Shown here piece after piece: positions 4,010-22,290 of a stretch of DNA of 64,000 nt; the first letter of the stretch is position 1; each line of letters starts with the position of its first letter. Made by a program: the position numbers and the translations under genes. Source of the stretch: an uncultured Dehalococcoidia bacterium (GTDB lineage Bacteria; Chloroflexota; Dehalococcoidia; Lucifugimonadales; GCA-2712585); the NCBI GenBank assembly GCA_958295715.1, contig OY282371.1:2175697-2239696 (forward strand), given 5' to 3'. Under the pieces are notes generated by a model. The model was not told where the DNA came from, did not search any database, and was given only the letters and a program-made list of their open reading frames with translations.

Positions 4010-6423
4010 CCTGCCGTCGTCTCCCCGCCCCGCAGGGAGGCCCCCGCCTCCCGCTCGAGGAGCCTGACCACCTTGGCCAGGTCCCGGTTCACCTCCTCCG
4101 ACGAGAGGGTGCGGTTGGCGGCCTGGAAATATATCCTGTAGGCCAGCGAGACCCTGCCCGGCGGGGCCTCCTTTCCCTCATAGGCGTCAAAAAGCACGGC
4201 CCGCTCCACCAACGGCCTGCCCTCTATGACCGCTTGGACCTTCGCCGCCGGGACGTCGCTATCCACCAGAATTGAGATGTCGCGGATAGAGCTGGGGTAG
4301 CGGGCCAGCGACTTCAAGGGCCGTTTGCCCTGGGGGAGGGCGGCCAGCAGCCTATCCAGGCGCATCTCGAAGAAGGCCACCGGCCCGCCGTCTATCTGAA
4401 ACCTCTCCTGCACGACGGGATGCACCTCGCCCACGACGCCCACCGCGGCTCCGTTGACGGTGATTGAGGCCGTCTTGCCGGGGTGGAAGAAGTCGTCGGC
4501 GCCGGGCTGAAAGGACGCCGCCGCGCCCATCTGCTCCAAGGCCGCCTCCACCACCCCCTTGGCGTCATAGAAGTCATAATGGCCGGCGTCGCCAAGCCAC
4601 CCCTCCTTGGCGCGGGGGCCGTAGAGGAGGCCGGCGGCCGTCTCCGGCTCCTCCGGCAGTCCCTTGGGACGCTTCAGGTAGACCCGGCCTATCTCGAAAA
4701 TGCCCACCGACTCAGTTTGACGGGCCAGGTTAGAGGCCAGGGTTTGCAGCAGGCTGGCCCGCAGGGTGGGCCGCATGTACTGGTACTCCCTGCTCATGGG
4801 GTTGGCCACCTTCAGCAGCCCCGCGCCGTCGCCGGCGGCCCCCGCCTCCCTGAGGGCGTCCAGGCTCACGGCCGAGTAGCTTATCACCTCCTGCAAGCCC
4901 GACCTCACCAGCAGGTCCCGCGCCTCCTCGCGAAAGTCCCTCATCTCCTGCCGTTCAAGGGCCGGCAAGGGGGTCGCCATCATTTGGGTTGGAATGGCGT
5001 CGTAGCCTATGATGCGCGCCGCCTCCTCCACCAGGTCGTCCTCGATAGTGACGTCGCTGCGCCAGTAGGGAGGAGTGACGCGCAGGTCGGAATCGCCCTC
5101 GCGCTGGCTCCGGAATCCCAGGGCGTCAAGGACCTCCTCCACCTGTTCCCGCGGGTATCCAACGCCCAAGACCTTCTTCATCCGCGCGCTGGTCAGAAGA
5201 ATGGCCTCCGGCTCCCGCCTGCCGGGGTAGACGTCCACGATGCCCTTGGCCACCGTGCCCCCGGCCACCTGGTGAATCAACTGGGTGGCGCGGCGGAGGG
5301 CCGGGGCCGTCAGCCCGGGGCGCAGACCCTTCTCGAAGCGCGCGGTGGCCTCGGTGCGGAGGCGGAAGGCCTGGGCCGTCTGCCGGTTGTTGGCCGGATT
5401 GAAGCTGGCCGACTCCAGGAGAACGTCGGTGGTTCCCTCGCTGATGCCGCTGTCCATCCCGCCAACAATCCCGCCCAAGGCCCGGGCGTCCCTGTCGTCG
5501 GCGATGACCAAGTGGGAGGAGTCCAAGGCCCTAACGACCCCGTCCAGGGTCTCCATGGTCTCGCCCGTGTAGGCCCGCCGCACTAGGATTCTGCCCTTGA
5601 GCAGCGTCTCGTAGTCAAAGGCGTGAAGGGGCTGGCCGTATTCCAGCATAACGTAGTTGGTGACGTCCACCACGTTGTTGATGGGCCGGACGCCGCACCT
5701 CTCCAGCCGCTCCCGCAGCCACCGCGGCGAGGGGCCGACGGCTATGCCCTTAATGAGGCTGGCCGTGTACCGGGGGCACAGGTCCGGATCCTGAATGGAC
5801 ACCGATATATGCGCGCTTATGGGCAGCCCCTCTTCCGGGTAGAGGGCCTCCGGCTCGCGCGCCCTGGCCCCCGTGAGGGCCGCCGCCTCGTAAGCCACCC
5901 CCAGAACCGACAGCCAGTCGGCCCGGTTGGGCGTCGGCTCCAGGTCCAAGGCCTGGTCGCCCATGTAGTCGTCCAAGGGCGTTCCCACCGGGGCGTCTTG
6001 GGGCAGAGTCAGGATGCCGTCGTGGTCCTCGCCGAGGCCCAACTCCTTCTCCGAGCAGATCATCCCCTCCGACACGACGCCGCGTATCTTGGCGGCCTTC
6101 AACCGGCTGGGCCTGCCCGTGCGCCCGTCGATGAGGGTGGCGCCAACCCGCGCGAAGGCTATCTTCTGCCCCGCGGCCACGTTGGGGGCGCCGCAGACCA
6201 CCTGCTGAACGCCGGCGCCGGTGGCCACGGCGCACAGGGTCAAACGCTGGGCGTTGGGGTGCGGCTCCACCCTTTCAACATGCCCCACAAAGCAGTTCTC
6301 CCACCCGCCGGTAGTGATAACCTCGCCAACCTCCAGGCCGGCCATGGTGAGCCGGTGAGCAAGCTCCTCCACCGGGACCTCTATGTCAACGAACTCTTTG
6401 AGCCAGGATATAGGAACTCTCAT
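4006..6423 (-). CDS. pheT: Phenylalanine--tRNA ligase beta subunit
   Basis: 805 aa. N-terminal MRVPISWLKEFVD followed by a tRNA-binding domain, B3/4 and B5 regions and a C-terminal anticodon-binding-like domain. Confidence 0.95.
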   Translation of the reverse strand: MRVPISWLKEFVDIEVPVEELAHRLTMAGLEVGEVITTGGWENCFVGHVERVEPHPNAQRLTLCAVATGAGVQQVVCGAPNVAAGQKIAFARVGATLIDGRTGRPSRLKAAKIRGVVSEGMICSEKELGLGEDHDGILTLPQDAPVGTPLDDYMGDQALDLEPTPNRADWLSVLGVAYEAAALTGARAREPEALYPEEGLPISAHISVSIQDPDLCPRYTASLIKGIAVGPSPRWLRERLERCGVRPINNVVDVTNYVMLEYGQPLHAFDYETLLKGRILVRRAYTGETMETLDGVVRALDSSHLVIADDRDARALGGIVGGMDSGISEGTTDVLLESASFNPANNRQTAQAFRLRTEATARFEKGLRPGLTAPALRRATQLIHQVAGGTVAKGIVDVYPGRREPEAILLTSARMKKVLGVGYPREQVEEVLDALGFRSQREGDSDLRVTPPYWRSDVTIEDDLVEEAARIIGYDAIPTQMMATPLPALERQEMRDFREEARDLLVRSGLQEVISYSAVSLDALREAGAAGDGAGLLKVANPMSREYQYMRPTLRASLLQTLASNLARQTESVGIFEIGRVYLKRPKGLPEEPETAAGLLYGPRAKEGWLGDAGHYDFYDAKGVVEAALEQMGAAASFQPGADDFFHPGKTASITVNGAAVGVVGEVHPVVQERFQIDGGPVAFFEMRLDRLLAALPQGKRPLKSLARYPSSIRDISILVDSDVPAAKVQAVIEGRPLVERAVLFDAYEGKEAPPGRVSLAYRIYFQAANRTLSSEEVNRDLAKVVRLLEREAGASLRGGETTAG

Positions 6424-6523
6424 AATTTAGTCCTTAACGTCTGCCGGCCTTGGAGTTTACAGGCAGGAATAGCCACGCTCAGCGCCCATAAGGCCCATAA
6501 GTATGGTCAACTTGAAGCCTCAC

Positions 6524-7579
6524 CTAGAACTGGCGTAGGAACCGCAGGTCGTTGGAGTAGAAGAGGCGAATGTCCTCAATGCCGTACTTCAGCATGGCTA
6601 TCCGCTCCGGCCCCATGCCGAAGGCGAAGCCCGTGTGCACGGCGGGGTCGTACCCCACCCCCTCTAGGACCTTGGGATGGACCATCCCGGCGCCCAGGAT
6701 CTCTATCCAGCCCGCCTCGCGGCAGATGCGGCACCCGGCCCCCTCGCAGGCGAAGCAGTCGATGGCCATCTCGACGCCCGGCTCCACAAAGGGGAAGTAG
6801 TCGCAGCGGAACCGCACCTTGCGCTCCGCGCCGAAGAGACGCCGCGCGAACTCGTACAGCGTCCCCTTCAGGTTAGCCAGGGTAATCCCCTCGTCCACGG
6901 CCAGACCCTCCACCTGGTAAAAGTGCCACTCGTGGGTGGCGTCGGTGGCCTCGTAGCGGTAGCACTTGCCCGGAACGATGACCCGCACCGGCGGCTTCAC
7001 CCGCTCCATGGTGCGGGCCTGCATGGGCGAGGTGTGGGTCCTCAGCAGCATGGACTGGCGGCCTTCATCGTCCTCCTGGTCTATCCAAAGGGTGTTCCAC
7101 ATGTCGCGGGCCGGGTGGTCCCTGGGGATGTTCAGCATCTCAAAGTTGTAGCGGTCCCACTCCACCTCCGGGCCTTCGACGACCTGAAAGCCCATGGACT
7201 CAAAGGCGTCGCATATCTCCCGGAGTATGCGGGTGAGGGGGTGGAACCTGCCCATGGCCACCGGGCGGCCCGGGCGCGTCACGTCTATACGCTCCTCCTG
7301 GGCCAGGCCGGCGATGCGGCTCTCCCGGACCCGGCGCCGCGCCTGGGCCAGCGACTCCTCCAGCAGGGCTTTGGCTTGGTTGGCCTGGGCGCCGACGACC
7401 CGGCGCTCCTCCTGCGCCAGGGTTCCCAAGCTCCGCAGGGCCGCGGTCAGGCGGCCGCGCCTGCCCAAGTACCGGACTCGCCACTCCTCCAGCCCCTCCT
7501 CGCCGGTCAGGCCCCGCAGTTCCTCCAAGGCCGCCTCCCGCGCCTGCTCTATGGTCCGGGCCAGATTCTGAGAGGTCAC
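6524..7579 (-). CDS. pheS: Phenylalanine--tRNA ligase alpha subunit
   Basis: Class II core motifs are present (HPLT, FRCDYFPFVEPG, GFAFGMGPERIAML). I chose the GTG at 7579 because the 51-aa upstream extension to 7732 is non-homologous and lies upstream of a consensus promoter. Confidence 0.9.
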   Translation of the reverse strand: MTSQNLARTIEQAREAALEELRGLTGEEGLEEWRVRYLGRRGRLTAALRSLGTLAQEERRVVGAQANQAKALLEESLAQARRRVRESRIAGLAQEERIDVTRPGRPVAMGRFHPLTRILREICDAFESMGFQVVEGPEVEWDRYNFEMLNIPRDHPARDMWNTLWIDQEDDEGRQSMLLRTHTSPMQARTMERVKPPVRVIVPGKCYRYEATDATHEWHFYQVEGLAVDEGITLANLKGTLYEFARRLFGAERKVRFRCDYFPFVEPGVEMAIDCFACEGAGCRICREAGWIEILGAGMVHPKVLEGVGYDPAVHTGFAFGMGPERIAMLKYGIEDIRLFYSNDLRFLRQF

Positions 7580-9713: not shown

Positions 9714-10301
9714 ATGATAGCCTCCATTAGAGGACGCCTCCGGGCCAGGGGCGCCGACTGGGTGCATCTGGAGGTGGGGGGAGTAACCTTTCATATCGCA
9801 GTGCCGGCCTCACTGGCCCAGGAGTTGGGGGAGGAGGGCCGGGAGGCGACCCTCCACACCCGCCTGATAATCCGGGACGACGAGCCCCAGCTCTACGGCT
9901 TCCCCAGCCAGGAGGCCCTGCGGTTCTTCCACATGCTAACCGGGGTGTCGGGCATAGGCCCCCGCACCGCCCTAAACCTGCTCTCCGCGCGGCCGCCGGA
10001 GGCCCTGGCCGCCGCCATCCTGACCGGCGACCTGGAGACCTTCACCGGCGTTCCCAGCATCGGCAAGAAGAGCGCGGCCCGCATCGTTTTGGAGCTTAAG
10101 GGCAAGTTGGAGAAGGGCGACTTCCAGATATCCCCCGTGGCCTCCCCCTCCGACGCCGACGCCCTGTCGGCCCTAACAGCCCTGGGCTACACCACCGTCG
10201 AGGCGCGGCGCGCCGTCAACGCCGTGGCCGGCGAGTCTCCGGGGCTTGACCTAGAGGAGTTGGTGCGCCGCGCGCTGAACCGCCTGGCCCGCGGAGTCTA
10301 A
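9714..10301 (+). CDS. ruvA: Holliday junction branch migration complex subunit RuvA
   Basis: MIASIRGRL N-terminus, two HhH motifs (GVSGIGPRTA, GVPSIGKKSAARI) and a C-terminal domain III. Confidence 0.92.
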   Translation: MIASIRGRLRARGADWVHLEVGGVTFHIAVPASLAQELGEEGREATLHTRLIIRDDEPQLYGFPSQEALRFFHMLTGVSGIGPRTALNLLSARPPEALAAAILTGDLETFTGVPSIGKKSAARIVLELKGKLEKGDFQISPVASPSDADALSALTALGYTTVEARRAVNAVAGESPGLDLEELVRRALNRLARGV

Positions 10302-11205: not shown

Positions 11206-11441
11206 ACCCGATTGCTCCCTTCTTGTAAGAACGCCCGCGTCTGGGCGAACGGCTGGGAACATTGTATCACAGACCCGCCATCCCAAGGCGCCAGGGCTGG
11301 CCGGATGGGGAGCGAGGAAGTTAACTTGGCGTTTCGTCTGGGGTTTAATGCCTGTATCGTTGCAAGCGGTTCGTGAATAAGTGGAGTATTCCCAGTTTCG
11401 CCACCTATGAATCCAAGGAAATCGCAGCCTACCGCTATGAA

Positions 11442-11747
11442 TCAACGCCGCCTTCTATCGCCCTTCTGTTTCTTATACGCGTCACCTCGGTTATTGGCAT
11501 CGTAGAAATGAATCTCCGAATCATCGTCAAGAACCTCATATTTGATTCGATACGAACCTTCATCCCAGCGGTAACTACAATTCCAAACGCCCTTCAGGTG
11601 ATCGATATGAGGTCCGCGCCGAGGATTCAGTTTGACTTGATCTTCAATCTCCAACCACTTGCGGTTAAGCTCAGGATGGTTTCTCAAGAACTTTCTAACA
11701 GAACGATGAATCGCCACCTTGTAATATGGGATGAAGCCGTAGACCAC
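11442..11747 (-). CDS. RelE/StbE-family type II toxin (mRNA interferase)
   Basis: 101 aa with the pattern YKVAIHRSVRKFLR...LKG...YRWDEGSYRIKYEV.D....IHFYDANNRGDAY, typical of RelE/ParE-fold toxins. GTG start. AT-richer than flanking DNA. Confidence 0.7.
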   Translation of the reverse strand: MVYGFIPYYKVAIHRSVRKFLRNHPELNRKWLEIEDQVKLNPRRGPHIDHLKGVWNCSYRWDEGSYRIKYEVLDDDSEIHFYDANNRGDAYKKQKGDRRRR

Positions 11748-11757
11748 AGATAGCTAG

Positions 11758-12159
11758 TCACATTCTTTTGGGAGGTTTTTTGCGCCTGGCTGCGATTTCT
11801 TCGACATTCCCTCCGGCAGCCACAGTCTCTTCTGCTGTCGCTATCCAACTGTTGAGAAGCCTAGCATACTCCAACCGGCGTGTTTCACCCTTAACATGCT
11901 CAATGCCTCCGCTGAGAATCTCAGAAGACAACTCTCGGAGAGCAGAAACGAGTAAAACGGAGCAAAGCTCCTCCACTTCCTCGGAAGAGGGAAACTTGTT
12001 GACCTGATCCCGTAATTCGGCCTCATCGGCCTGAAAATCATAACCCCAGTCATCAAAGACATCCTGAGGATACTCATAAACATGCCCATGACTCCACATA
12101 GAAATATGGCGATGTCTACTCCGCTTATCCGAGTGGGATTCCAATTCAGTAATCATCAT
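11758..12159 (-). CDS. Hypothetical acidic protein in the antitoxin position upstream of RelE
   Basis: 133 aa, ending 10 nt before the relE-like start. No recognisable DNA-binding motif by eye. The antitoxin role is inferred from position only. Confidence 0.4.
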   Translation of the reverse strand: MMITELESHSDKRSRHRHISMWSHGHVYEYPQDVFDDWGYDFQADEAELRDQVNKFPSSEEVEELCSVLLVSALRELSSEILSGGIEHVKGETRRLEYARLLNSWIATAEETVAAGGNVEEIAARRKKPPKRM

Positions 12160-12161
12160 GG

Positions 12162-12860
12162 TTATGTTCCCTTTTCTTGAGTCTCTGCGTCTAGCACAAA
12201 ATCACCGATGATTCTAACGCCTCGCTGAACCGTATAGTCCATAAGCTGTTCGGATATTCTTGCTTCTGATAGGGAAAACCTTAGCGAGACTGCAAGCGAA
12301 CGGTCTGGACCCAGATCCATCGTAACCACAGTGGATCCTGCATCGCCTTCTTTCCTCAAACGAACTCCCGTTATTTCCGCAAATGGCGCATTAGGGCCCT
12401 GGATGGTCATCATAGGAAGACCAATGATTGGCCGCTTCACGTCAGGCGGGAACATCCAAACAATGTGAGAATGAAGCGGTCTGCTCAGAGCGCATTCTTT
12501 GAATTCCGACAGCATTGCTTGGATTTCAGAAAATTGCCGCTCTCCCTTTATACGAGTCGCTGACCTCAATGTGGCGCTTGATGGAAACGTATGAGATTCC
12601 AATGTAAATCTAGCTGAGTCAGGATTTTTCTTGCGGCGTGGTTCCACCTCCAAACTAATATGGTGCCTAACGCCATTAACTTCATACAGTCCAAGTTTAT
12701 CTATGGACCGGCGGGGCCAACCCTTTTGATATCCGCTAAGCACATCAGAAAGCCGTTCGCAACCTGCTTCAGCAAGCGAAATTTCGCCAGCAACCAAAGC
12801 TCCCCTGATGTTCAATTCTCGTAAATTCTTCATTTCCCGGCGCGTAAGGGGATATCTCAC
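12162..12860 (-). CDS. Hypothetical protein (first gene of the AT-rich three-gene cassette)
   Basis: 232 aa. Its stop lies 2 nt before the next start. GC is about 48-50% against about 65% in the flanks. No recognisable family. Confidence 0.45.
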   Translation of the reverse strand: MRYPLTRREMKNLRELNIRGALVAGEISLAEAGCERLSDVLSGYQKGWPRRSIDKLGLYEVNGVRHHISLEVEPRRKKNPDSARFTLESHTFPSSATLRSATRIKGERQFSEIQAMLSEFKECALSRPLHSHIVWMFPPDVKRPIIGLPMMTIQGPNAPFAEITGVRLRKEGDAGSTVVTMDLGPDRSLAVSLRFSLSEARISEQLMDYTVQRGVRIIGDFVLDAETQEKGT

Positions 12861-12968: not shown

Positions 12969-14975
12969 ATGGTAAGGACTCAGGAGCGCCGGTTCAGCAT
13001 CACCGCCGACTTCCAGCCCACCGGGGACCAGCCCCAGGCCGTGGGCAAGCTGGTGGAGGGGGCGGAGGGCGGGAACCGGCATCAGACCCTCATGGGCGTC
13101 ACGGGCAGCGGCAAGACCTTCACCATGGCCAACATCGTCCAGGAACTCCAGCGGCCGACCCTGGTCATCGCCCACAACAAGACCCTGGCCGCCCAGCTGG
13201 CCACGGAGTTCAGGGAGTTCTTCCCCCACAACGCCGTCGAGTACTTCGTATCCTACTACGACTACTACCAGCCCGAGGCCTACGTGCCCCAGACGGACAC
13301 CTACATCGAGAAGGACGCCGCCATCAACGAGGAGATAGACAAGCTGCGCCACTCGGCGACCCGCTCCCTGCTGACCCGCCGCGACGTGCTGATAGTGGCC
13401 TCCGTTTCCTGCATCTACGGCCTGGGAGACCCGGAGGAGTACTACTCCTTTGTGGCCCCGGTGAAGGTGGGCGAGACCCGCGCGCGCACCAGCCTGGCGC
13501 GGGACCTGGTGGCCATGCAGTACGAGCGCAACGACGTTAGCCTGGTCCGCGGCAGGTTCCGCATGAAGGGCGACACCCTGGAGATGCTGCCCGCCTACGA
13601 GGAGGTGGCCGTCCGCATCCAGTTCTGGGGCGACGAGATAGAGCGCATCGCCGAGATAGACCCCCTGACCGGCGAGGTCCTGGCCGAGCGGCGGGAGATG
13701 GAGATATACCCCGCCAAGCACTTCGTGACCTCCGAGGAGAAGCTCCGCCTGGCCGTTGAGGACATCCAGGCGGAGTTGGCCCAGTGGCTGGCCCACCTGA
13801 GGAGTCAGGGCAAGATACTGGAGGCGGCCCGCCTGGAGTCCCGCACCAAGTACGACCTGGAGATGATGGCCCAGGTGGGCTACTGCTCCGGCATCGAGAA
13901 CTACTCGCGGCACATAGGCCGGAGGGCCGAGGGCAGCACCCCCTGGACCCTGTTGGACTACTTCCCCCCCGACTACCTGATGTTCATCGACGAGTCCCAC
14001 ATGACCCTGCCCCAGCTCCGCGGGATGTACCACGGCGACATCTCCCGCAAGCAGACCCTGGTGGACTTCGGCTTCCGGCTGCCCTCGGCCCTAGACAATC
14101 GCCCCCTGAACTTTCGCGAGTTCGAAGGCCACGTGAACCAGGTCGTCTTCGTCTCCGCGACCCCGGGGCCCTACGAGATGGAAGTGAGCCAGCGGGTGGT
14201 GGAGCAGATAATCCGTCCCACCGGCCTCCTGGACCCCGTCATCGAAGTCAAGCCCACCCGCGGCCAGATCGACGACCTGCTTGAACAGATTCAGAAGCGC
14301 GTGGGAAGCGGGGAGCGGTGCCTCGTCACCACCCTAACCAAGCGCATGGCCGAGGAGTTGGCCGACTACCTCCAGGAGATGGGCGTCCGCGTCCACTACC
14401 TGCACTCGGAGATTCAGACCTTGGAGCGCAGCGAGATACTGCGGGACCTGCGCCTGGGCGTGTACGACGTGGTGGTGGGCATCAACCTGCTGCGGGAGGG
14501 TCTAGACCTGCCGGAGGTCAGCTTCGTGGCCATCCTTGACGCCGACAAGGAGGGCTACCTGCGCTCGGCTTCCTCCCTAATCCAAACGGTGGGCCGGGCC
14601 GCCCGCCACGTGGAGGGCCGCGTCATTATGTACGCCGACAACGTGACCAACTCCATGCGCACGGCCATTGACGAGACCAACCGCCGCCGCGCCATACAGG
14701 ACGCCCATAACCGGCGCCACGGCATCGCGCCCCAGGGCATTCAGAAGGCCGTGCGGGACATCACCGAACGCGTTAAGGCCGTGGCCGAGGAGCGCGCGCC
14801 CTACGCGACGGAGCGAAAGCTGATGTCGGAGGACGAACTCTTCCGCGTGGTGAAGGACCTGGAGTCCCAGATGAAGCTCTCGGCCAAGAACCTGGAGTTC
14901 GAGAAGGCGGCCATGTTCCGCGACGAGATATACGAGATTAGACGGCTTCTGGCCATGTCTAAGAAGAACGCTTAG
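12969..14975 (+). CDS. uvrB: Excinuclease ABC subunit B
   Basis: 668 aa with [10 protein letters not shown] Walker A, helicase motifs and a C-terminal UVR domain ([11 protein letters not shown]). Confidence 0.97.
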
Positions 14976-15467: not shown

Positions 15468-16292
15468 ATGACCACTCCCCAGAGAGTCCCCACGCCTCAG
15501 GAGCAGGCCCGGCTGGAGTCCATCAGGAAAACGTGGCAGCAGCGCAGGGCCATCACCCAAAACCTGTCCAAAATCAGGACCAAGGTGGCCGTGTACAGCG
15601 GCAAGGGAGGCGTGGGCAAGACCACCATAGCCGTGAACCTGGCCGCCCTCCTGGCCAAGCAGGGGCGTTCCGTGGGGCTGCTGGACGTGGACATCGACTG
15701 CCCCAACGTCATCAACGTGTTGGGCATCACCGAGCCGCCCACCCGGGTGGATGGCAAGCTGGCGCCGTCGGAGAAGTTCGGCGTCAAGGTGGTCTCCATG
15801 GGGTTCTTCCAGCAGAAGGAGGACGAGGCCATCATCTGGCGCGGCCCCATGGTGCACAACGCCATCAACCAGTTCCTCCAACTCACCCAGTGGGGGGACT
15901 TGGACTACCTGGTGGTGGACCTGCCGCCGGGGACGTCGGACTCCCCTCTAACCGTGATGCAGACCCTCCCCTTGGATGGGTTCGTAATGGTCACCACGCC
16001 CCAAAAGCTGGCCCAACTGGACGCCAAGCGGTCAATCAACATGGTGAGGAAGCTGAACGTCAAGGTGCTGGGCATAGTGGAGAACTACACCGGCGATATC
16101 TTCGGGCGTGGAGCCGGGGAAGCCCTGGCCACTGAGTTGGGCGTCCCCTTCCTGGGGTCCATGGCCCTGCGGTCCGACTACCGGGACGAGACCAAGCCCA
16201 CCGTGCTCACCAGCCCCACCGTCAGGAAGGAGTACGAACGCGTGGTCAAGGGGCTGAAGGCCAGCCTGGCCGAGGCGACCAAGGCCAAGTAG
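15468..16292 (+). CDS. apbC: Mrp/NBP35 (ApbC) family Fe-S cluster carrier ATPase
   Basis: Deviant Walker A SGKGGVGKTT, DLPPGTSD and the typical length. Confidence 0.88.
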   Translation: MTTPQRVPTPQEQARLESIRKTWQQRRAITQNLSKIRTKVAVYSGKGGVGKTTIAVNLAALLAKQGRSVGLLDVDIDCPNVINVLGITEPPTRVDGKLAPSEKFGVKVVSMGFFQQKEDEAIIWRGPMVHNAINQFLQLTQWGDLDYLVVDLPPGTSDSPLTVMQTLPLDGFVMVTTPQKLAQLDAKRSINMVRKLNVKVLGIVENYTGDIFGRGAGEALATELGVPFLGSMALRSDYRDETKPTVLTSPTVRKEYERVVKGLKASLAEATKAK

Positions 16293-16309: not shown

Positions 16310-17308
16310 CTAGGCGGAGACCGCCGCGCCCGCGTTAAGCTCGCGCAGAATCTCCTGGGTCTTCGCGTCCAACTGCTCGCCCATGGCCGCGCGCTTCCCC
16401 ACTCTGCCCTCTGCAATTTTCAACGCCGTGACCGCGGGAATGGAAACAACCGAGGCGGCCCCGGCGGCCGTTAAAGCCGCCCCGATGGTCGTATAGACCG
16501 CCGACCTAGCCAGACGGACCCTTCCACGCTTAAATGACTCCTCAACGGTGGAGGTCCCCAACATCACCTTCGCGCCCTCAATGACGCCTATGCAAACCGC
16601 AGAACCGATGGGGATGGCGTCAAGGGCAAACTCCGATATCTGATTCCCGGCGCTGATTGCCACGCTTTCGCTGAGTTCAGCCAACTGTTCGCCAGTCATA
16701 TCTTCCAACTCCTCGTTGGAGATATCGGCGGAGAGCAAAGCGTCCATGCCGGATGCCTCGTCCTGAAGCTCCTGGGGAACCATGACCGGGATATTCGGGT
16801 ACTTTTCCAGGGCGCTCTTCGCATAGCCGAGGGAGTCGGTGGCCTTCAGTTGCACCTGCTCAACCACGTCCCCGGTAGACTTGTTGACAATCTCCAGGTC
16901 CCACCCCGGCTCCACCGGAGATCCCGCCAAGTCCGCCACTTCGCCCGGGCCAAGGGTGATGCCCCCCACGGTTTCACCGGCGTTCAGCTTATCCCTCACC
17001 AGGACCTCGAAGTACTTGCCCTTTGAGCCATTGGCCCAACCCTCCAACTGCTCCTCCGTAGCGCCTCGGAGAGAATCAATCTCCACGTTGGGATACTGAA
17101 GCCGGAAGGCCTCAAGGAACTGAGGGTCGGCCTCGGGCTCGAGGCCAAGGTTCACGACGTTATCAAGGGACACGTCGGCGGCAATGGCGGCCACTTCCAG
17201 GGTCTCCCTTTCGTGGCGGCGGCGATACCGACCCGCCAGTTGAGGCAGCGCGTCCCTGGCCTGGGGCGGGTATGAGTCGGATAGCTCTTTGAGCTTGTCG
17301 TAAGCCAT
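16310..17308 (-). CDS. Hypothetical protein with Mrr-cat-like PD-(D/E)xK nuclease motif and hydrophobic C-terminal region
   Basis: The ATG at 17308 overlaps the upstream stop (ATGA). FEVLVRDKL...GWDLEIV...VQLKAT resembles the restriction-endonuclease (Mrr_cat) core. Two hydrophobic Gly/Ala-rich segments lie near the C-terminus. Confidence 0.4.
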   Translation of the reverse strand: MAYDKLKELSDSYPPQARDALPQLAGRYRRRHERETLEVAAIAADVSLDNVVNLGLEPEADPQFLEAFRLQYPNVEIDSLRGATEEQLEGWANGSKGKYFEVLVRDKLNAGETVGGITLGPGEVADLAGSPVEPGWDLEIVNKSTGDVVEQVQLKATDSLGYAKSALEKYPNIPVMVPQELQDEASGMDALLSADISNEELEDMTGEQLAELSESVAISAGNQISEFALDAIPIGSAVCIGVIEGAKVMLGTSTVEESFKRGRVRLARSAVYTTIGAALTAAGAASVVSIPAVTALKIAEGRVGKRAAMGEQLDAKTQEILRELNAGAAVSA

Positions 17309-17904
17309 CAAAACCACCGCCAACGCCACCAAGGACGGTTCAACCGCTTCTCCAAGGAATCCATCTTATTCAACGTGGCTTGGAGGGCCAGTCGCATCTC
17401 CTTGTCGTCGTTCAACTGCTCTTCAACGGGAGCCATCCTCTTCGACAGGGCTTGGAGCTCCTGTCGCATCTCCATAGCGTCGTTCAGCCGTTCCTCCAAG
17501 GAAGTCGTCCTCTCCAACAGGGCTTGGAGCTCCTGCCGCATCCCCATAGCGTCGTTCAGCCGTTCCTCCAAGGAAGTCGTTCTCTCCAACAGGGCTTGGA
17601 GCTCCTGCCGCATCTCCATCGCGTCGTTCAGCCGTTCCTCCAAGAGAGCCAGCTTCTTCAACTGTTCCTCTTGGCTTTGGTGGACGCCGATAACCGTTGT
17701 AGTCACCGCGTCGGTGAACTCGTTAAACTGTTTCTGGAACTTGGCCCCGGTGACGGTGTCGTAAGTCCCGACGACGCTTTTCCCCCCGGAACCGAGGGCT
17801 CCCCGCAACCTCCCCATCACCCCACGCCTGCCTTCAGCTTCGGGAGCCTCATCCCCCTTGGGGGCCTCATCTACCAAGTCGTTTCCTTCCGGCCTGCTCT
17901 CCAT
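17308..17904 (-). CDS. Coiled-coil protein with 24-aa tandem repeats and a Trp/Arg-rich C-terminus
   Basis: The ATG at 17904 is preceded by AAGGAGGGGGAT. Repeats read LEERLNDAMEMRQELQALLERTTS. The protein ends ...RPWWRWRWF. Confidence 0.5.
   Translation of the reverse strand: MESRPEGNDLVDEAPKGDEAPEAEGRRGVMGRLRGALGSGGKSVVGTYDTVTGAKFQKQFNEFTDAVTTTVIGVHQSQEEQLKKLALLEERLNDAMEMRQELQALLERTTSLEERLNDAMGMRQELQALLERTTSLEERLNDAMEMRQELQALSKRMAPVEEQLNDDKEMRLALQATLNKMDSLEKRLNRPWWRWRWF
17447..17650 (-). repeat. Intragenic 72-nt tandem repeat (about 2.8 near-identical copies, with degenerate copies flanking)
   Basis: Unit starts at 17447, 17519 and 17591. The copies differ at only a few positions. Confidence 0.9.
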
Positions 17905-17966
17905 ATCCCCCTCCTTTATTTCCCACGAACGCCCGTCAACCGACTGCATACGAATTACCAGCCTTA

Positions 17967-19058
17967 CTACTTTACATAGGTGGTAATCCTTTCAATCTGC
18001 TGATTCCAACCTACCCTCAAAGACGCAGGGGTATCCTCAGATTCCAATAAACGGAGTAAAGTTTCGTTAAAGATGCCCCTACCCCGTCGGCCAATCATAG
18101 CCAAAAGCATCAGTAGCCATTCTTTTATAATTACGAAATTGACCTCGTGTCCCTGGGCAAAGTATTGGCGAGCTTGCCGTTTTGCGTCCGGACCAACAGC
18201 CTCCGGGCTCACAAAGAACAGATAATCCTCTATTCCATGGAGGGATATCTTGGTATTGAAGGTGGCGATTACTCGAGTCGCATCCACGGGGCGTTCGGTT
18301 ACCTCGGCAGTCATTAGGGTTTCCCCACGGCTTATAACCGTGATGTCGCCACCGGCGCCGGCGGCAGTATCCGATACGTTAATCCCCTGCCAAGACACCT
18401 CCCAATCCAATTCAAAATAACTCTTGATAGTGGTGAAGGCCGCCACCACCAGTAAAACGGGAAGCCTGCCTCCACTCGGCGTATCAAGCAGACCGGAAAT
18501 CAAGTCGTCGAACTGTTCCAAACTAATCCTATGAATCTTTGAAAGAGGAACATTCGCTTGTTCTCGCAGTTCCGCGAATTTGTATAGCACGTAGTTAAGA
18601 AACTTGAGAAGTTCGGAGTCTTCAGCAGTTTCTTCAATGTGCTTTATGGCCTCAAGCAGACTATCGTAGTCCTCCTGGTATCTAAGGCCCTCTCTAGTTG
18701 GCAAGTTAAATTCCACTGAGCGTCTGAATACGCTCAAGTAAGGGCCACGAGAGCAGGGAATTCGCTCATCGTAAAGAAACCGGTTGACAACCTTTTCATC
18801 CAGGCCTCGTCCGCTGAAGGCGTTGGGGCCTTGCCTGGCGTAAGGCTGCCGTATGTTTATTGTCTTGTCTTGAATTCTCGCGACAAGGCAACCCAAAAGG
18901 GCTTCCCTATATGCCTGCGTCGGGGAATTAAAAACAGCGTCGCACGCCAACTTAAGGGCCTCCGGCGTTTCAGGAGGCGTCTTATCTAGCATCCGTGTCT
19001 CTGCGGCAGGAAAGTTATCTTCTAGTAACTTCCTAGCCCCTTGATAATCAATCGGCAT
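17967..19058 (-). CDS. Putative type II restriction endonuclease (partner of the adjacent Dam-class methyltransferase)
   Basis: 363 aa, AT-rich (about 45%), starting 24 nt downstream of the methyltransferase on the same strand. No family recognised by eye. The call rests mainly on context. Confidence 0.45.
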   Translation of the reverse strand: MPIDYQGARKLLEDNFPAAETRMLDKTPPETPEALKLACDAVFNSPTQAYREALLGCLVARIQDKTINIRQPYARQGPNAFSGRGLDEKVVNRFLYDERIPCSRGPYLSVFRRSVEFNLPTREGLRYQEDYDSLLEAIKHIEETAEDSELLKFLNYVLYKFAELREQANVPLSKIHRISLEQFDDLISGLLDTPSGGRLPVLLVVAAFTTIKSYFELDWEVSWQGINVSDTAAGAGGDITVISRGETLMTAEVTERPVDATRVIATFNTKISLHGIEDYLFFVSPEAVGPDAKRQARQYFAQGHEVNFVIIKEWLLMLLAMIGRRGRGIFNETLLRLLESEDTPASLRVGWNQQIERITTYVK

Positions 19059-19082
19059 TAAATCTGAGCTTCACAGGACCTA

Positions 19083-19964
19083 TCAGAAGTTTGTCCATAG
19101 GGCCTCTTGGCGCAGGTCTTTTGAGGAGTGGCATTTCTTAGGCGGGGCGTCATGCCGCTTCCATCCCCTGTACAAGTCCGTCATCAACTCGCAGCGGTAA
19201 CCGGAGATGGCGACATTTCCGTCGCACTCACGAAGCACGGCCGCCAAACGCCGGTGCTCCTCCTCACTCATCTCAAATCCGTAGGCCCTGCTGTCCCTCC
19301 GGGCGCTGTGGGCGTAGGGAGGGTCGCAGTAAAACAGGGTGTCGGGACTGTCATACAGCTTGATAACCTCAATGGCGGGACGGTTCTCTATCTGAACCCT
19401 CAGAAGCCGGGCGGCTATCTCCGGCAGGGTCTCCAGGCTGCCCAGCCATCGCGAGACCACCCCGCTCATACCGGCGCGGCTGGTCTGCTTGCAGTTGGCC
19501 CACCGGCCCAGAGTGGCGGTCTGAGCCAGGCCCGTTCTGGCCTGCCGCGCCCGCACAAAAAACCGGCGCGCCCTCTCCATGTCCGACACGGGTTCTCCGC
19601 CGGAAGACAGGGCGATGTAGAACTCCTCCCGCGAAAAGGGCGTCAGGCCGATGCTCTCAATCAACTCATCCTTTGCGCTGCGGAGGACCCGGAAGAAGTT
19701 AGTCACCTCTCCGTCTATGTCATTGTAGGTTTCGATGGGAGACGGAGCCCGGTTGAGAAGCACGGCGGCCGAGCCGCCAAAGGGTTCGCAGTAGTGGCGG
19801 CCCTCCGGCAGCAGGGGGAGGAGCCAGTCCAAATGGCTGTACTTCCCGCCATACCACCCGAAGGCTATGGACTTGCGCGGGCGAGGCAGAACCTTGGCGG
19901 CCGGTTTGCCCCCTGAGCGCGCGGCGTCCTGCTCCAAGTAGATGGGTGACGGGGTTCTTGCCAT
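19083..19964 (-). CDS. DNA adenine methyltransferase (D12 class, Dam family)
   Basis: FGWYGGK, EPFGGSAAV (SAM-binding FxGxG) and YCDPPY (motif IV DPPY). Confidence 0.85.
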   Translation of the reverse strand: MARTPSPIYLEQDAARSGGKPAAKVLPRPRKSIAFGWYGGKYSHLDWLLPLLPEGRHYCEPFGGSAAVLLNRAPSPIETYNDIDGEVTNFFRVLRSAKDELIESIGLTPFSREEFYIALSSGGEPVSDMERARRFFVRARQARTGLAQTATLGRWANCKQTSRAGMSGVVSRWLGSLETLPEIAARLLRVQIENRPAIEVIKLYDSPDTLFYCDPPYAHSARRDSRAYGFEMSEEEHRRLAAVLRECDGNVAISGYRCELMTDLYRGWKRHDAPPKKCHSSKDLRQEALWTNF

Positions 19965-20118: not shown

Positions 20119-22290
20119 CTAGAAACCGCCCGAAAAACTCCCCGCGCGGCTTGGGCTTTTGAGCACTTGACGGGACTTGCCCGGCTCGCCGCCGGCCACT
20201 ATCCCCTCTTCTTCAAGGATATCAAGCAGTTGCATGGCCCTGGGATATCCAATCTCGAGGTGCCGCTGGAGCAGCGACGGGGACATCTGCTGGTACTTGC
20301 CGGCCATCTGCCGCGCCTTATCCAGCAACTTGTCCTCGTCGTCCTCTTCCTCGTCCTCCGCTTCAGCCTCCATGGACATTTGCGAAAGGGGCGGGCCCTT
20401 CTGGCTCTTCCAGAAGTCTATCAACGCCTCGAGCTCCGAGTCCGACAGATAAGCGCCCTGTATCCGCAGGGGAGCGGGCGACTGGGCGGAGAGGAAGAGC
20501 ATGTCACCCTTCCCCAAGAGCTTGTCGGCCCCGGCCCCGTCAAGTATCACCCTGGAGTCCACCTGCGACGCCACGGCGAAGGCGATGCGGCCCGGCACGT
20601 TGGCCTTCAGCAGCCCGGTTACGACCTTCACCGACGGCCTCTGGGTGCACAGTATCAGGTGTATGCCCGCGGCGCGGCCCAGCTGGGCCAGGCGCACCAG
20701 GGCCTGCTCCACCTCAAACCCGGATATCATCATCAGGTCGGCCAACTCGTCGATGATGAGCACGGCGTAGGGCATCGGCTCCTTGGCCTTGCGGTTATAT
20801 CCGTCAATGTTCCGCGCGCCAATCTCCTCCATCAGCTTGTAGCGGGCGAACATCTCCCGCAGCAGGGCCTCCAAGACCTCCGTCACCTCGTCGGTGTCCA
20901 CGATGACGGGGGCGAAGAGGTGGGGGATGCCGTTGAAGGGGGTCAACTCCACCCGCTTGGGGTCCACCATCAGCATTCTGAGGCGGTCCGGCGGGATGGA
21001 CATTAGGAAGGAAGCGACCACGGTGTTGATGCAAACGCTCTTGCCGCTTCCCGTGGACCCGGCGATTAGCAGATGGGGAAGGCTCACCAGATTGGTCACC
21101 AGGGGGTTGCCGCCGGTGTCCTGTCCCAGGGCCACGGGCAGACCGTTCTTCTTGACAATCTCCCGGAAGTCGGGGTTGGTGATGATGGAGCGCAGGAATA
21201 CGCTGCTGGGCTTGGGGTTGGGAACCTCCAGCCCCACAAAGCTCTCGCCGGGGACAGGCGACTCTATGCGCAGGTCCGAGGTCTTGAGGGCCAGGGCCAG
21301 GTCCGTTTCCCTGGCCAGTATGCTCTGGACCTTAACGCGGCCCATGTCCACGTGGGTCTTCTCATCCAGGGCCTTGGCGTCCCGGTTCCTCTTGATGCGG
21401 CCCGGGACCAGCCCGAACCTAATCACCCGCGGGCCGGTTCTAACGTCCGTCACCGACACCTCGACGCCGTGGTCGGAGAGGGTCTCCTCAATGCGCGACG
21501 ACATCTCGTCGAGAATTCCCTTGTCCAGAACCTCGGTTTCCCCCACGGTGAGGAGTTCCAGACCGGGCAGCACCCACTTGGACTCTGCTTGGGCCGTCTC
21601 AAGGGGCCTGTCATGGACGGCCGCCCCGTTGAAGGGTTCCATCACGTAGTCTTGGCCGACGGGAGCCATGTCCGTCGCGTCGAAGGCCTCCATCGAATGG
21701 CCGTTGGACGTGGCTGGAACGGCTTCACCCTCCGCGGCGGCCGGTTGAGGTCTGCGCGGGACCAACCGTGGCAGTTCCCGCGCCCGCGCCGCCAAGTACA
21801 GGTAGGCCGCCACCGCGCCCCGCGACGTCGCTTCGACGCCTGCCTGGCACTGGGCAACGCTCCACCGGGGGGCGACGATGAGGAGAATGGCCAGAAGGGC
21901 CGCGGCTACCTTGGCGATGCCCAGGGGCAGGGGATACCCGCCCAAAAGCCGGCCCCAGTATCCGGAGAGGCCGATTTCGTCAAGGGCGCCTTGGCTGGGC
22001 ACAAAGAGGGAGAGGAATCCGAGGGTGGCCACCACGCCAAGGGCGGCGGCCAGCCAGGCGCTGGGGTAGGCCGTCACCCACTTGCGCCCGAATTTCAGGG
22101 TCAGCAGGAAGGCGGCTATCCACAGACCGACGGGGGCGTATCCAAAGCCCAAGCTGGTCCAAACCACGCTGCGGGCGTCGTCCCAGAAGTAGAGGAGGCT
22201 GGCGGGAGTCAACACGAGAACCAAGGCGGCCAAGGCCACCTGGACTTTTCGGTATCGAAGCAGGCCGAAGGCTTTCAAAAGCCGTCCCAT
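20119..22290 (-). CDS. ftsK: DNA translocase FtsK/SpoIIIE
   Basis: 723 aa with N-terminal TM helices, Walker A GSTGSGKSV, Walker B LIIDELADL and a C-terminal gamma winged-helix (SPSLLQRHLEIGYPRAMQLLDILEE). Confidence 0.95.
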   Translation of the reverse strand: MGRLLKAFGLLRYRKVQVALAALVLVLTPASLLYFWDDARSVVWTSLGFGYAPVGLWIAAFLLTLKFGRKWVTAYPSAWLAAALGVVATLGFLSLFVPSQGALDEIGLSGYWGRLLGGYPLPLGIAKVAAALLAILLIVAPRWSVAQCQAGVEATSRGAVAAYLYLAARARELPRLVPRRPQPAAAEGEAVPATSNGHSMEAFDATDMAPVGQDYVMEPFNGAAVHDRPLETAQAESKWVLPGLELLTVGETEVLDKGILDEMSSRIEETLSDHGVEVSVTDVRTGPRVIRFGLVPGRIKRNRDAKALDEKTHVDMGRVKVQSILARETDLALALKTSDLRIESPVPGESFVGLEVPNPKPSSVFLRSIITNPDFREIVKKNGLPVALGQDTGGNPLVTNLVSLPHLLIAGSTGSGKSVCINTVVASFLMSIPPDRLRMLMVDPKRVELTPFNGIPHLFAPVIVDTDEVTEVLEALLREMFARYKLMEEIGARNIDGYNRKAKEPMPYAVLIIDELADLMMISGFEVEQALVRLAQLGRAAGIHLILCTQRPSVKVVTGLLKANVPGRIAFAVASQVDSRVILDGAGADKLLGKGDMLFLSAQSPAPLRIQGAYLSDSELEALIDFWKSQKGPPLSQMSMEAEAEDEEEDDEDKLLDKARQMAGKYQQMSPSLLQRHLEIGYPRAMQLLDILEEEGIVAGGEPGKSRQVLKSPSRAGSFSGGF

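Follow-up and report, generated by a model that had tools for sequence, protein, structure and literature searches.

A candidate membrane-tethered, nuclease-like gene pair beside a restriction-modification system at a variable ftsK-apbC site in a SAR202-type Dehalococcoidia genome

Introduction

Between apbC and ftsK in the genome of an uncultured SAR202-type Dehalococcoidia bacterium, a member of the marine Chloroflexi (contig OY282371.1), four consecutive minus-strand genes raise two questions: whether a restriction-modification (R-M) pair and the two genes behind it form a single defence locus, and what the last two genes, here called A and B, might do. An earlier reading of the DNA (the original prediction) had treated the four genes as one functional locus in a defence island and had singled out the last two as its most interesting item, a choice with which our analysis agrees. 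We refer to the whole stretch of 64,000 nucleotides (nt) as the window and give all coordinates as window positions; L-numbers designate loci, and P-numbers proteins, of the relatives used for comparison. The genes concerned and their flanks, with protein lengths in amino acids (aa), are as follows.

15468-16292, plus strand: apbC (ParA/Mrp-type), one flank of the four-gene stretch
16310-17308, minus strand: protein B, 332 aa, from a family without a Pfam or NCBIfam model
17308-17904, minus strand: protein A, a 198-aa coiled-coil protein with a predicted C-terminal membrane-association tail (from its sequence and homologous partners)
17967-19058, minus strand: SacI-family Type II restriction endonuclease (R), 363 aa (precomputed PF09566)
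19083-19964, minus strand: D12-class (Dam family) N6-adenine DNA methyltransferase (M), 293 aa (PF02086, PADLOC MTase_II)
20119-22290, minus strand: ftsK, the other flank

The layout described originally, in which gaps of 24 nt and 62 nt are followed by a 1-nt overlap, was recovered, except that the overlap, given as ATGA, reads TGATG, so that the TGA stop of A and the ATG start of B have one base (A) in common. The reading frame of A is open from 17949 and its start was taken as the ATG at 17904, after AAGGAGG; that of B is open over 16310-17332, with the ATG at 17308 taken as the start. Base composition also required correction. The GC content is 62.7% in the methyltransferase gene, 49.5% in the endonuclease gene (originally put at about 45%), 58.8% in A and 61.6% in B, against 63.8% for the window. 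Only the endonuclease gene is clearly below its flanks, and the description of the A-B pair as lying in low-GC DNA does not hold.

Results

A and B as a conserved two-gene module

Protein B belongs to a large family. Searches returned 329 close full-length homologues, 637 clusters at 50% identity in an exhaustive search (E <= 1e-3), and 1,323 proteins at E <= 1e-10 with a profile built from distant members; all are named 'hypothetical protein' in their sources and none has a Pfam domain. A locus scan with a 17-sequence B alignment, taking one genome per species, gave 67 loci, most of them in metagenome-assembled genomes of SAR202/Dehalococcoidia and the others in Nitrospira, Latescibacterota, Peptococcaceae, Paenibacillus, Brevibacillus, Alicyclobacillus, Compostibacillus and Maribacter. 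The profile from distant members added Calditrichota, Metabacillus, Oceanobacillus and Bacillus, and the pair is accordingly known from Dehalococcoidia, Nitrospira, Latescibacterota, Calditrichota, Bacillota and Bacteroidota. B sequences are 47-60% identical across phyla, which indicates horizontal spread. Presence and absence are patchy, and the close relative L072 has no A-B at the site occupied in the window.

A small same-strand open reading frame (ORF) always stands upstream of B, and the stop codon of A often abuts or overlaps the start codon of B. With a hidden Markov model (HMM) of the conserved motif of A described below, the same-strand ORF immediately before B was recognized in 76 of the 78 sources scanned, nearly always with E-values between 3e-6 and 3e-17. 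In the remaining two, the contig ends (L037) or a transposase-like ORF stands upstream of B (L050). The view of the last two genes as a pair is borne out by the start/stop overlap and by their co-conservation in these counts, and on this sequence evidence we regard A and B as a strictly linked, conserved two-gene module.

Protein B has a probable restriction-endonuclease-like core

The structure of B was modelled with AlphaFold2 (AF2) from a 67-sequence alignment, and conservation was counted over the same 67 diverse sequences. The predicted local distance difference test (pLDDT) score was 87.8 for the full protein and 95.7 for the core alone. In the model, residues 1-84 are helical and precede the following elements.

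16724-17056, minus strand: core of B, residues 85-195, α-β-β-β-α-β (AF2 model and conservation)
17006-17008, minus strand: E101, on the first helix of the core, invariant in the 67 sequences
16898-16900, minus strand: D137, at the start of the second strand, invariant in the 67 sequences
16850-16852, minus strand: Q153, at the end of the third strand, at least 90% conserved
16844-16846, minus strand: K155, at the end of the third strand, at least 90% conserved
16313-16717, minus strand: C-terminal region, residues 198-332, four long helices (AF2 secondary structure)

In full-length numbering the core consists of helix 85-109, strands 123-127, 138-142 and 148-154, helix 160-169 and strand 175-177. 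Modelled in this way, it probably adopts the PD-(D/E)xK (restriction-endonuclease-like) fold with an Mrr-like D...QxK arrangement. The motifs FEVLVRDKL, GWDLEIV and VQLKAT and the two Gly/Ala-rich hydrophobic stretches that had been pointed out in the 332-aa protein are all present, and the likeness to the Mrr_cat PD-(D/E)xK core proposed at the time stands as regards topology and conserved residues, but did not reach significance in any test. By eye, FEVIV...GGID...VQAK of Mrr (EcoKMrr, Mrr_cat) parallels FEVLV...GWDLEI...VQLK of B, and the αβββαβ topology is alike in the two. In B, Gln stands where an acidic residue is usual. B differs from Mrr in having membrane-type C-terminal helices instead of the Mrr_N DNA-binding domain. 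The highest Foldseek ranks of B in the PDB, with E-values of 0.08-2, probabilities up to about 0.35 and none significant, were mostly restriction enzymes and nucleases (BstEII, DdmD, Ecl18kI, the restriction-endonuclease-like 3ijm, CinB and BbvCI), and several phage nucleases were among the non-significant top ranks of the core in BFVD. NCBIfam and PHROGs gave nothing useful for B.

The C-terminal region contains two Gly/Ala-rich hydrophobic, hairpin-like segments (about 227-250 and about 271-297) and the conserved residues P233, E244, R265 and R302. Kyte-Doolittle maxima over 19 residues are 1.65 (232-250) and 1.75 (275-293), at the threshold for a transmembrane (TM) helix, and in longer relatives of B (e.g. 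P0188 and P0233) the hairpins are more hydrophobic and TM-like than in the window protein.

Several relatives depart from this architecture. In P0141 (484 aa) the N-domain and core of B are duplicated in tandem, the first copy without the QxK motif; P0188, P0205, P0233, P0209, P0194, P0192 and P0170 (445-515 aa) have C-terminal extensions of 150-200 aa; and P0218, P0230, P0251 and P0217 have an extra N-terminal domain. The core domain occurs in other architectures too, as in a 509-aa protein without a Pfam domain encoded on plasmid pBS5-3-1 of Yoonia sp. BS5-3 (L078:7996-9525), the C-terminal region of which is 34% identical to B residues 86-212. Genes for GIY-YIG and CoiA-family nucleases lie near that of the Yoonia protein. 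An apparent A-B fusion, P0094 (518 aa, from a single 9.4-kb metagenomic contig), was dropped: the TM segment of A is replaced in it by unrelated residues, and it is probably a frameshift or assembly error and not a true fusion.

Protein A is a predicted tail-anchored coiled-coil protein

Three features of A can be placed on the sequence, the repeat having been delimited with Tandem Repeats Finder (TRF).

17671-17766, minus strand: conserved motif, residues 47-78 (TYDTVTGAKFQKQFNEFTDAVTTTVIGVHQSQ), the sole strongly conserved part of A
17338-17644, no strand assigned: in-frame tandem repeat, 72 bp x 4.3 copies (24-aa units; TRF score 383, 85% matches, no indels)
17311-17337, minus strand: Trp/Arg-rich tail, residues 190-198 (RPWWRWRWF), from alignments of A

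Within the motif G53 and G73 are invariant and T52, F63, T64, D65 and H75 are conserved. Its consensus of about 30 residues, TG-x-(I/V/F)-x6-E(F/Y)(S/T)(D/E)-x7-G(V/L/M)H, stands N-terminal to the coiled coil, and we infer that it may be a B-binding or signalling motif. The 24-aa repeats reported originally are those delimited by TRF; they enlarge the coiled coil, and the spacer in relatives of A ranges from about 15 to 175 residues.

Relatives of A mostly end in a hydrophobic TM helix of about 20 residues, in place of which the clade of the window protein has the Trp/Arg-rich tail, with a similar tail (PWWQFWHWRWI) in the syntenic loci L007, L012, L027 and L051. A is thus predicted to be a tail-anchored protein in which, in the window clade, a putative interfacial tail rich in Trp and Arg substitutes for the TM helix. 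Further variation was seen at the other end: the A proteins of L028 (6805-7998) and L043 (6748-7998) match bPH_3 (bacterial PH) above its cut-off, at 27-30 bits against 23, with one or two copies N-terminal to the motif, coiled coil and TM helix, and the same could be made out by eye in L029, L048 and L015. Apart from coiled-coil noise, A itself matched no family in Pfam, NCBIfam, PHROGs or PADLOC. In L024, from a SAR202 genome, the regular A gene is immediately preceded by a second ORF with the A motif (6406-7104; HMM E = 1.1e-9), which may be a duplicated partner.

R-M and A-B are independent cassettes at one variable site

Relatives with the same flanks (UvrB 88-90% and ApbC 85% identical) were compared across the interval between ftsK and apbC, and four states were found, which mark the site as a variable hotspot.

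M-R-A-B: the window
M-A-B plus an NYN-domain gene (ftsK-M-A-B-NYN-apbC): L003 (= L007)
M-R only (ftsK-M-R-apbC): L072
A-B only (ftsK-A-B-apbC): L012, L027 and L051

Because M-R only, M-A-B and A-B only all exist at the same site, the R-M pair and A-B are two independent cassettes gathered there, and the notion of four genes acting as one functional locus has to be given up. The ftsK-apbC site is a natural experiment, with four cassette combinations in close relatives. Across the syntenic genomes B is only 46-55% and A 25-31% identical, and the window B is closer (60%) to the non-syntenic copies of L005 and L006 than to the syntenic ones, which suggests that the A-B cassette is being exchanged or is rapidly diverging. 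L003 holds more cargo at this hotspot: the NYN-domain (RNase-like) gene, which encodes 459 aa, lies between B and apbC (L003:9015-10394, minus strand), and ftsK is separated from the methyltransferase gene by an unannotated gene for 133 aa (L003:5755-6156, minus strand).

Genomic neighbours and the predicted candidate PDC-M72

The original prediction could match the pair to no named defence system. This has to be revised for B: the window protein matches the PADLOC candidate PDC-M72B (PDLC04784 at 5.9e-12, residues 139-229; PDLC04785 at 9.1e-8), and so do 66 and 64 of the 67 B members with the PDC-M72B models, at a best E-value of 3.7e-24. The PADLOC run proposed for the pair thus gave a match for B; the matches of A proteins (DruC, JetC and LmuB) are at the coiled-coil level only. 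The PDC systems are 145 predicted candidates embedded in BREX, DISARM or Type I R-M systems (bioRxiv 10.1101/2024.01.29.577857), and PDC-M72 is defined as the cassette FAM_01979>>FAM_01904, with a count of 31 and without annotation (supplement, bioRxiv 10.1101/2024.01.29.577857). No mention of PDC-M72 in literature text was found beyond this definition. PDC-M72 of Payne et al. resembles A-B in being a two-gene cassette and in having a related component B. It differs in that the PDC-M72B profiles have 168-193 positions, against 332 aa for B, and match only the latter half of the core plus the helix after it, and in that embedding in BREX, DISARM or Type I R-M is not the context of the window pair. 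Judged by these profiles, the window pair would be at best a distant architectural variant of this predicted candidate.

SAR202 genomes hold most of the members found. The contexts of A-B in five other genomes are as follows.

Brevibacillus composti (L074:5264-9247): A-B immediately preceded by a STAND-like ATPase and a DUF2357+PDDEXK_7 protein
Maribacter orientalis (L080:11342-15711): A-B beside a neighbour pair like that of Brevibacillus, with two C5 methylases and an integrase fragment in addition
Calditrichota genome (L075): a CARF protein (Cas_APE2256) immediately precedes A-B, and cas1-cas2 are about 6 kb away
Metabacillus: A-B, then two dynamin-like GTPases
Paenibacillus lutrae: uninformative neighbours

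Brevibacillus and Maribacter, from different phyla, have this kind of neighbour pair (the large ATPase with weak STAND/AAA matches) in differing orientation; we take the DUF2357+PDDEXK_7 protein to be McrC-like. In L004 PIN and HEPN/RES toxin genes are nearby. Defence genes stand beside A-B in the window, L003, L074, L075, L080 and, in part, L004. A survey of neighbours gave raw counts over 125 ORFs from 44 dereplicated loci. Among the PADLOC matches were Shedu SduA, mad2 (2), HEC-01B (2), PDC-M26A and methylases, and among those in Pfam SIR2 (2), DUF4276 (2) and integrases (2). As to the placement in a defence island proposed originally, the neighbours outside SAR202 often include restriction, CRISPR or Shedu genes, and those within SAR202 are mostly metabolic; the association of A-B with defence is suggestive in the former case and weak in the latter.

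The restriction-modification pair is of a known type

The methyltransferase matches Pfam PF02086 (E = 5.5e-25, 89 bits against a cut-off of 22) and PADLOC MTase_II (E = 2.2e-56), and its relatives in the PDB are Dam and DpnII M1 (M1.DpnII), at about 1e-8. Because its score against TIGR00571 'dam' is 71 bits, under the cut-off of 114.85, we class it as a Dam-family relative and not as a Dam equivalog. Of the motifs named originally, the catalytic DPPY is present (CDPPYAHS), and FxGxG is only approximate: motif I, which binds S-adenosylmethionine (AdoMet), reads PFGGSA, the final Gly being replaced by Ala. The syntenic methyltransferases of L003 and L072 are 80-84% identical to that of the window.

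The second gene, originally assigned as the cognate endonuclease by its position, has more than 1,000 homologues. Precomputed annotation places PF09566 (RE_SacI_N; PF09566.18) on the window protein (P0268) and on all 120 homologues listed, and NCBI labels relatives at 57-60% identity 'restriction endonuclease, SacI family'. Unlike the precomputed annotation, a direct hmmscan of the window protein against Pfam-A gave no PF09566 even at E <= 1. A methyltransferase gene followed by an endonuclease gene (PF09566:RE_SacI_N) recurs in the same order in the syntenic L072, where the endonuclease is 68% identical to that of the window, and in a different genome with unrelated housekeeping context (L073). 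The assignment as a cognate-type endonuclease thus stands, and the first two genes appear by homology to be an ordinary Type II R-M system, that is, known biology. The low GC content of the endonuclease gene suggests a more recent or more foreign origin for it than for the rest of the cassette. The pair is like other Type II systems of the D12 plus SacI-family (PF09566) kind in family, M-then-R order, size and tight spacing, and unlike them the relative L003 keeps a very similar methyltransferase without the endonuclease.

Avoidance of GAGCTC was considered as a sign of SacI specificity and dropped: the window has 9 sites, against 23.5 expected from dinucleotide shuffles, but the effect vanishes under a maximal-order Markov model (12.4 expected, rank 33 of 64 palindromes), so that the SacI site is not specifically avoided. 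Three of the nine sites (17455-17460, 17527-17532 and 17599-17604) lie inside the 72-bp repeats of gene A, beside the endonuclease gene. Under the same model other palindromes are strongly under-represented in the window, namely AAGCTT (0 against 19 expected) and CTGCAG (0 against 8.6); GCATGC (1 against 10.5), CCTAGG (1 against 7.8) and GATC (32 against 189) are further avoided sites. GATC is also depleted 1.6- to 3.5-fold in the six Dehalococcoidia loci that have either these flanks or this R-M pair in common with the window, irrespective of the presence of the endonuclease. Site-avoidance counts in the window do not single out the recognition site of the methyltransferase, and several R-M systems probably put pressure on this genome. 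AAGCTT and the SacI site have the AGCT core in common.

A second variable island in the window

Another low-GC island was found elsewhere in the window.

11440-12860, minus strand: low-GC island (about 48% GC against 64%) between ruvA (9714-10301) and uvrB (12969-14975)

It contains three small genes, for proteins of 232, 133 and 101 aa; the last of these proteins matches PHS013, a RelE homologue from an archaeon (PDB 1wmi), at E = 1.8e-4. At the same spot in relatives there is HicB in L072, and HTH_3 together with a faint YdaS_toxin match in L003. The ruvA-uvrB island looks like another variable hotspot, with cargo of the toxin-antitoxin type.

Discussion

A membrane-tethered nuclease module?

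The reading that we favour, and to which we give about an even chance of being right, is that the locus combines an R-M system with an independent A-B module that acts against foreign DNA through a membrane-tethered nuclease. The N-terminal motif of A would bind B and hold or regulate it at the inner membrane, and the hairpins of B would add peripheral membrane contact. B, as an active nuclease, would cut incoming phage or plasmid DNA near the site of entry, and its confinement to the membrane would keep it off the chromosome. A more specific version is that A-B is an uncharacterised anti-phage system in which A is a stalk of tunable length that gates an Mrr-like nuclease at the membrane, and in which self and non-self are told apart by location and not by methylation; the fast-evolving length of the stalk would then serve as a tunable spacer, adjusted here through expansion of the 72-bp repeat. 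This version is possible, and we put it forward only tentatively.

Two known systems suggest how such a module could work. SNIPE (PD-λ-1), a membrane nuclease made of a single chain, cleaves λ DNA as it is being injected (bioRxiv 10.1101/2025.11.03.685801), and its homologues exchange their membrane-targeting devices, either TM or PH domains (bioRxiv 10.1101/2025.11.03.685801). The logic proposed for A-B is alike, in that a nuclease is kept at the inner membrane (in SNIPE by a TM segment), and the A family likewise varies its predicted anchor between the TM helix, the Trp-rich tail and added bPH_3 domains. SNIPE is, however, one polypeptide with an N-terminal TM segment, DUF4041 and GIY-YIG, whereas in A-B the C-terminal anchor and the coiled coil belong to one protein and the PD-(D/E)xK-like core to another, and SNIPE and A-B have no sequence relationship. 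In type I Zorya a ZorAB membrane complex with a long coiled-coil tail operates with the effectors ZorC and ZorD (bioRxiv 10.1101/2023.12.18.572097); the length of the cytoplasmic coiled-coil tail is essential and the nuclease acts near the site of entry (bioRxiv 10.1101/2023.12.18.572097). The coupling of an anchored coiled coil to a nuclease effector resembles the logic proposed here, but A has a single anchor and no motor of the MotA/ExbB type, B is not a helicase-type nuclease, and equivalents of ZorB, ZorC and ZorD are missing. In agreement, PADLOC found no ZorB, ZorC, ZorD or SNIPE (PD-Lambda-1) among A and B, and its ZorA matches to 2 of 21 A proteins are at the coiled-coil level. A search of the literature for anti-phage nucleases with a tail anchor returned none.

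A number of results weigh against the proposed membrane nuclease. The Mrr likeness of B is without statistical support: among the 67 B members no Pfam family matched more than two at E <= 1, with no nuclease among the 25 families listed; sequence and profile searches of the PDB with B gave nothing relevant; Foldseek searches of full B and its core against the PDB, and of the core against BFVD, gave E-values of at least 0.08 and thus none at E <= 0.001; and hhalign of the B core with E. coli Mrr gave a probability of 0.7%, with only the FEVxV helix aligned. The hydrophobic segments of B are marginal as TM helices and hold conserved charged residues, and some A proteins of SAR202 have no obvious anchor. 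No match to PDC-M72A at E <= 0.01 was found in 21 diverse A proteins (among the 25 most-hit families listed) or in the window A. Only a small minority of the 125 neighbouring ORFs appear to match defence models, and the defence role of A-B, as well as that of PDC-M72, is predicted.

Alternative explanations

Several of these points bear also on the strongest rival, that A-B has a non-defence, lineage-enriched function at the membrane, in DNA processing or at the envelope (it might serve the uptake or processing of DNA, link the chromosome to the membrane or take part in a stress response) and is occasionally transferred horizontally. The pair is very common in SAR202/Dehalococcoidia, where most genes around it are metabolic (Rieske, CoA-transferase, amidohydrolase and SDR genes). 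One subclade holds it at the same ftsK-apbC position in several related genomes, and a lineage-specific housekeeping gene would look alike. With B as the query, no homologue of the pair was found in the phage collection, and the single plasmid match, that of Yoonia, is at the domain level only. Such a function accords less well with the patchy spread over six phyla at the cross-phylum identities given above, with the missing pair in L072, with the many unrelated contexts of A-B within SAR202, and with its recurrence outside SAR202 beside restriction, CRISPR, Shedu or toxin genes; A and B, at 25-31% and 46-55% identity, also diverge more than ApbC and UvrB (85-88%). We consider a non-defence function rather unlikely.

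An abortive-infection system would use much the same parts differently: the PD-(D/E)xK-like domain of B, possibly inactive as a nuclease, would sense DNA or a phage protein, the hairpins would depolarise the membrane, and A would be a receptor or regulator. The two conserved hydrophobic hairpins with their flanking amphipathic helices and their greater hydrophobicity in longer relatives agree with this, as do the membrane anchoring predicted for A and the one case of A-B beside a CARF protein within a CRISPR locus, a setting where membrane effectors are common. But the hydrophobic stretches have about 12 residues per arm and include the conserved E244, R265 and R302, and the Pfam search of the 67 B members gave no SLATT or other known pore family. 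The E/D/QxK residues, moreover, are invariant or nearly so over these diverse members, which favours catalysis over a degenerate sensor. We judge abortive infection unlikely, and less likely than the membrane-tethered nuclease.

An addiction cassette of the toxin-antitoxin kind, with B as a toxic nuclease, A as an antidote that sequesters it at the membrane and no dedicated anti-phage role, seems very improbable. Two genes with overlapping stop and start codons, the upstream one small and the other coding for a larger enzyme, are the expected layout, integrase or transposase genes stand near some A-B loci and toxin-antitoxin genes near that of L004; yet the pair is essentially absent from plasmid and phage collections, many copies are in stable chromosomal contexts, and A is a predicted structural coiled-coil membrane protein unlike a typical labile antitoxin.

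Least credible of all is one composite defence system with A-B as accessory or backup effector of the R-M pair: the common strand, the short 24-nt and 62-nt gaps, the lack of a convincing terminator between the four genes and the methyltransferase next to A-B in L003 too would fit it, but a single four-gene system is essentially excluded by the distribution across relatives, with M-R alone, M-A-B without R and A-B alone at the same site, A-B without an adjacent methyltransferase elsewhere and M-R alone in L073, and the GC content of the endonuclease gene differs sharply from that of the others.

Significance

The R-M half of this locus is routine. A-B, by comparison, represents a large cross-phylum family of gene pairs for which no description was found in Pfam, NCBIfam or the literature, and whose sole trace in defence databases is the partial match of B to the predicted candidate PDC-M72B. 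We consider it a reasonable candidate for a new anti-phage system, one that as a kind of system, with a membrane anchor and a nuclease-like effector, resembles known defence logic. If A-B protects against phages, it would be a two-protein example among nucleases that act at the membrane, together with SNIPE and Zorya, and a tractable model of spatial confinement in place of epigenetic self-marking. It would then be an anti-phage system with more than 1,300 B homologues over at least six phyla, and would give an annotation to a common gene pair of SAR202, an abundant uncultured lineage of the deep ocean whose immune repertoire is poorly known.

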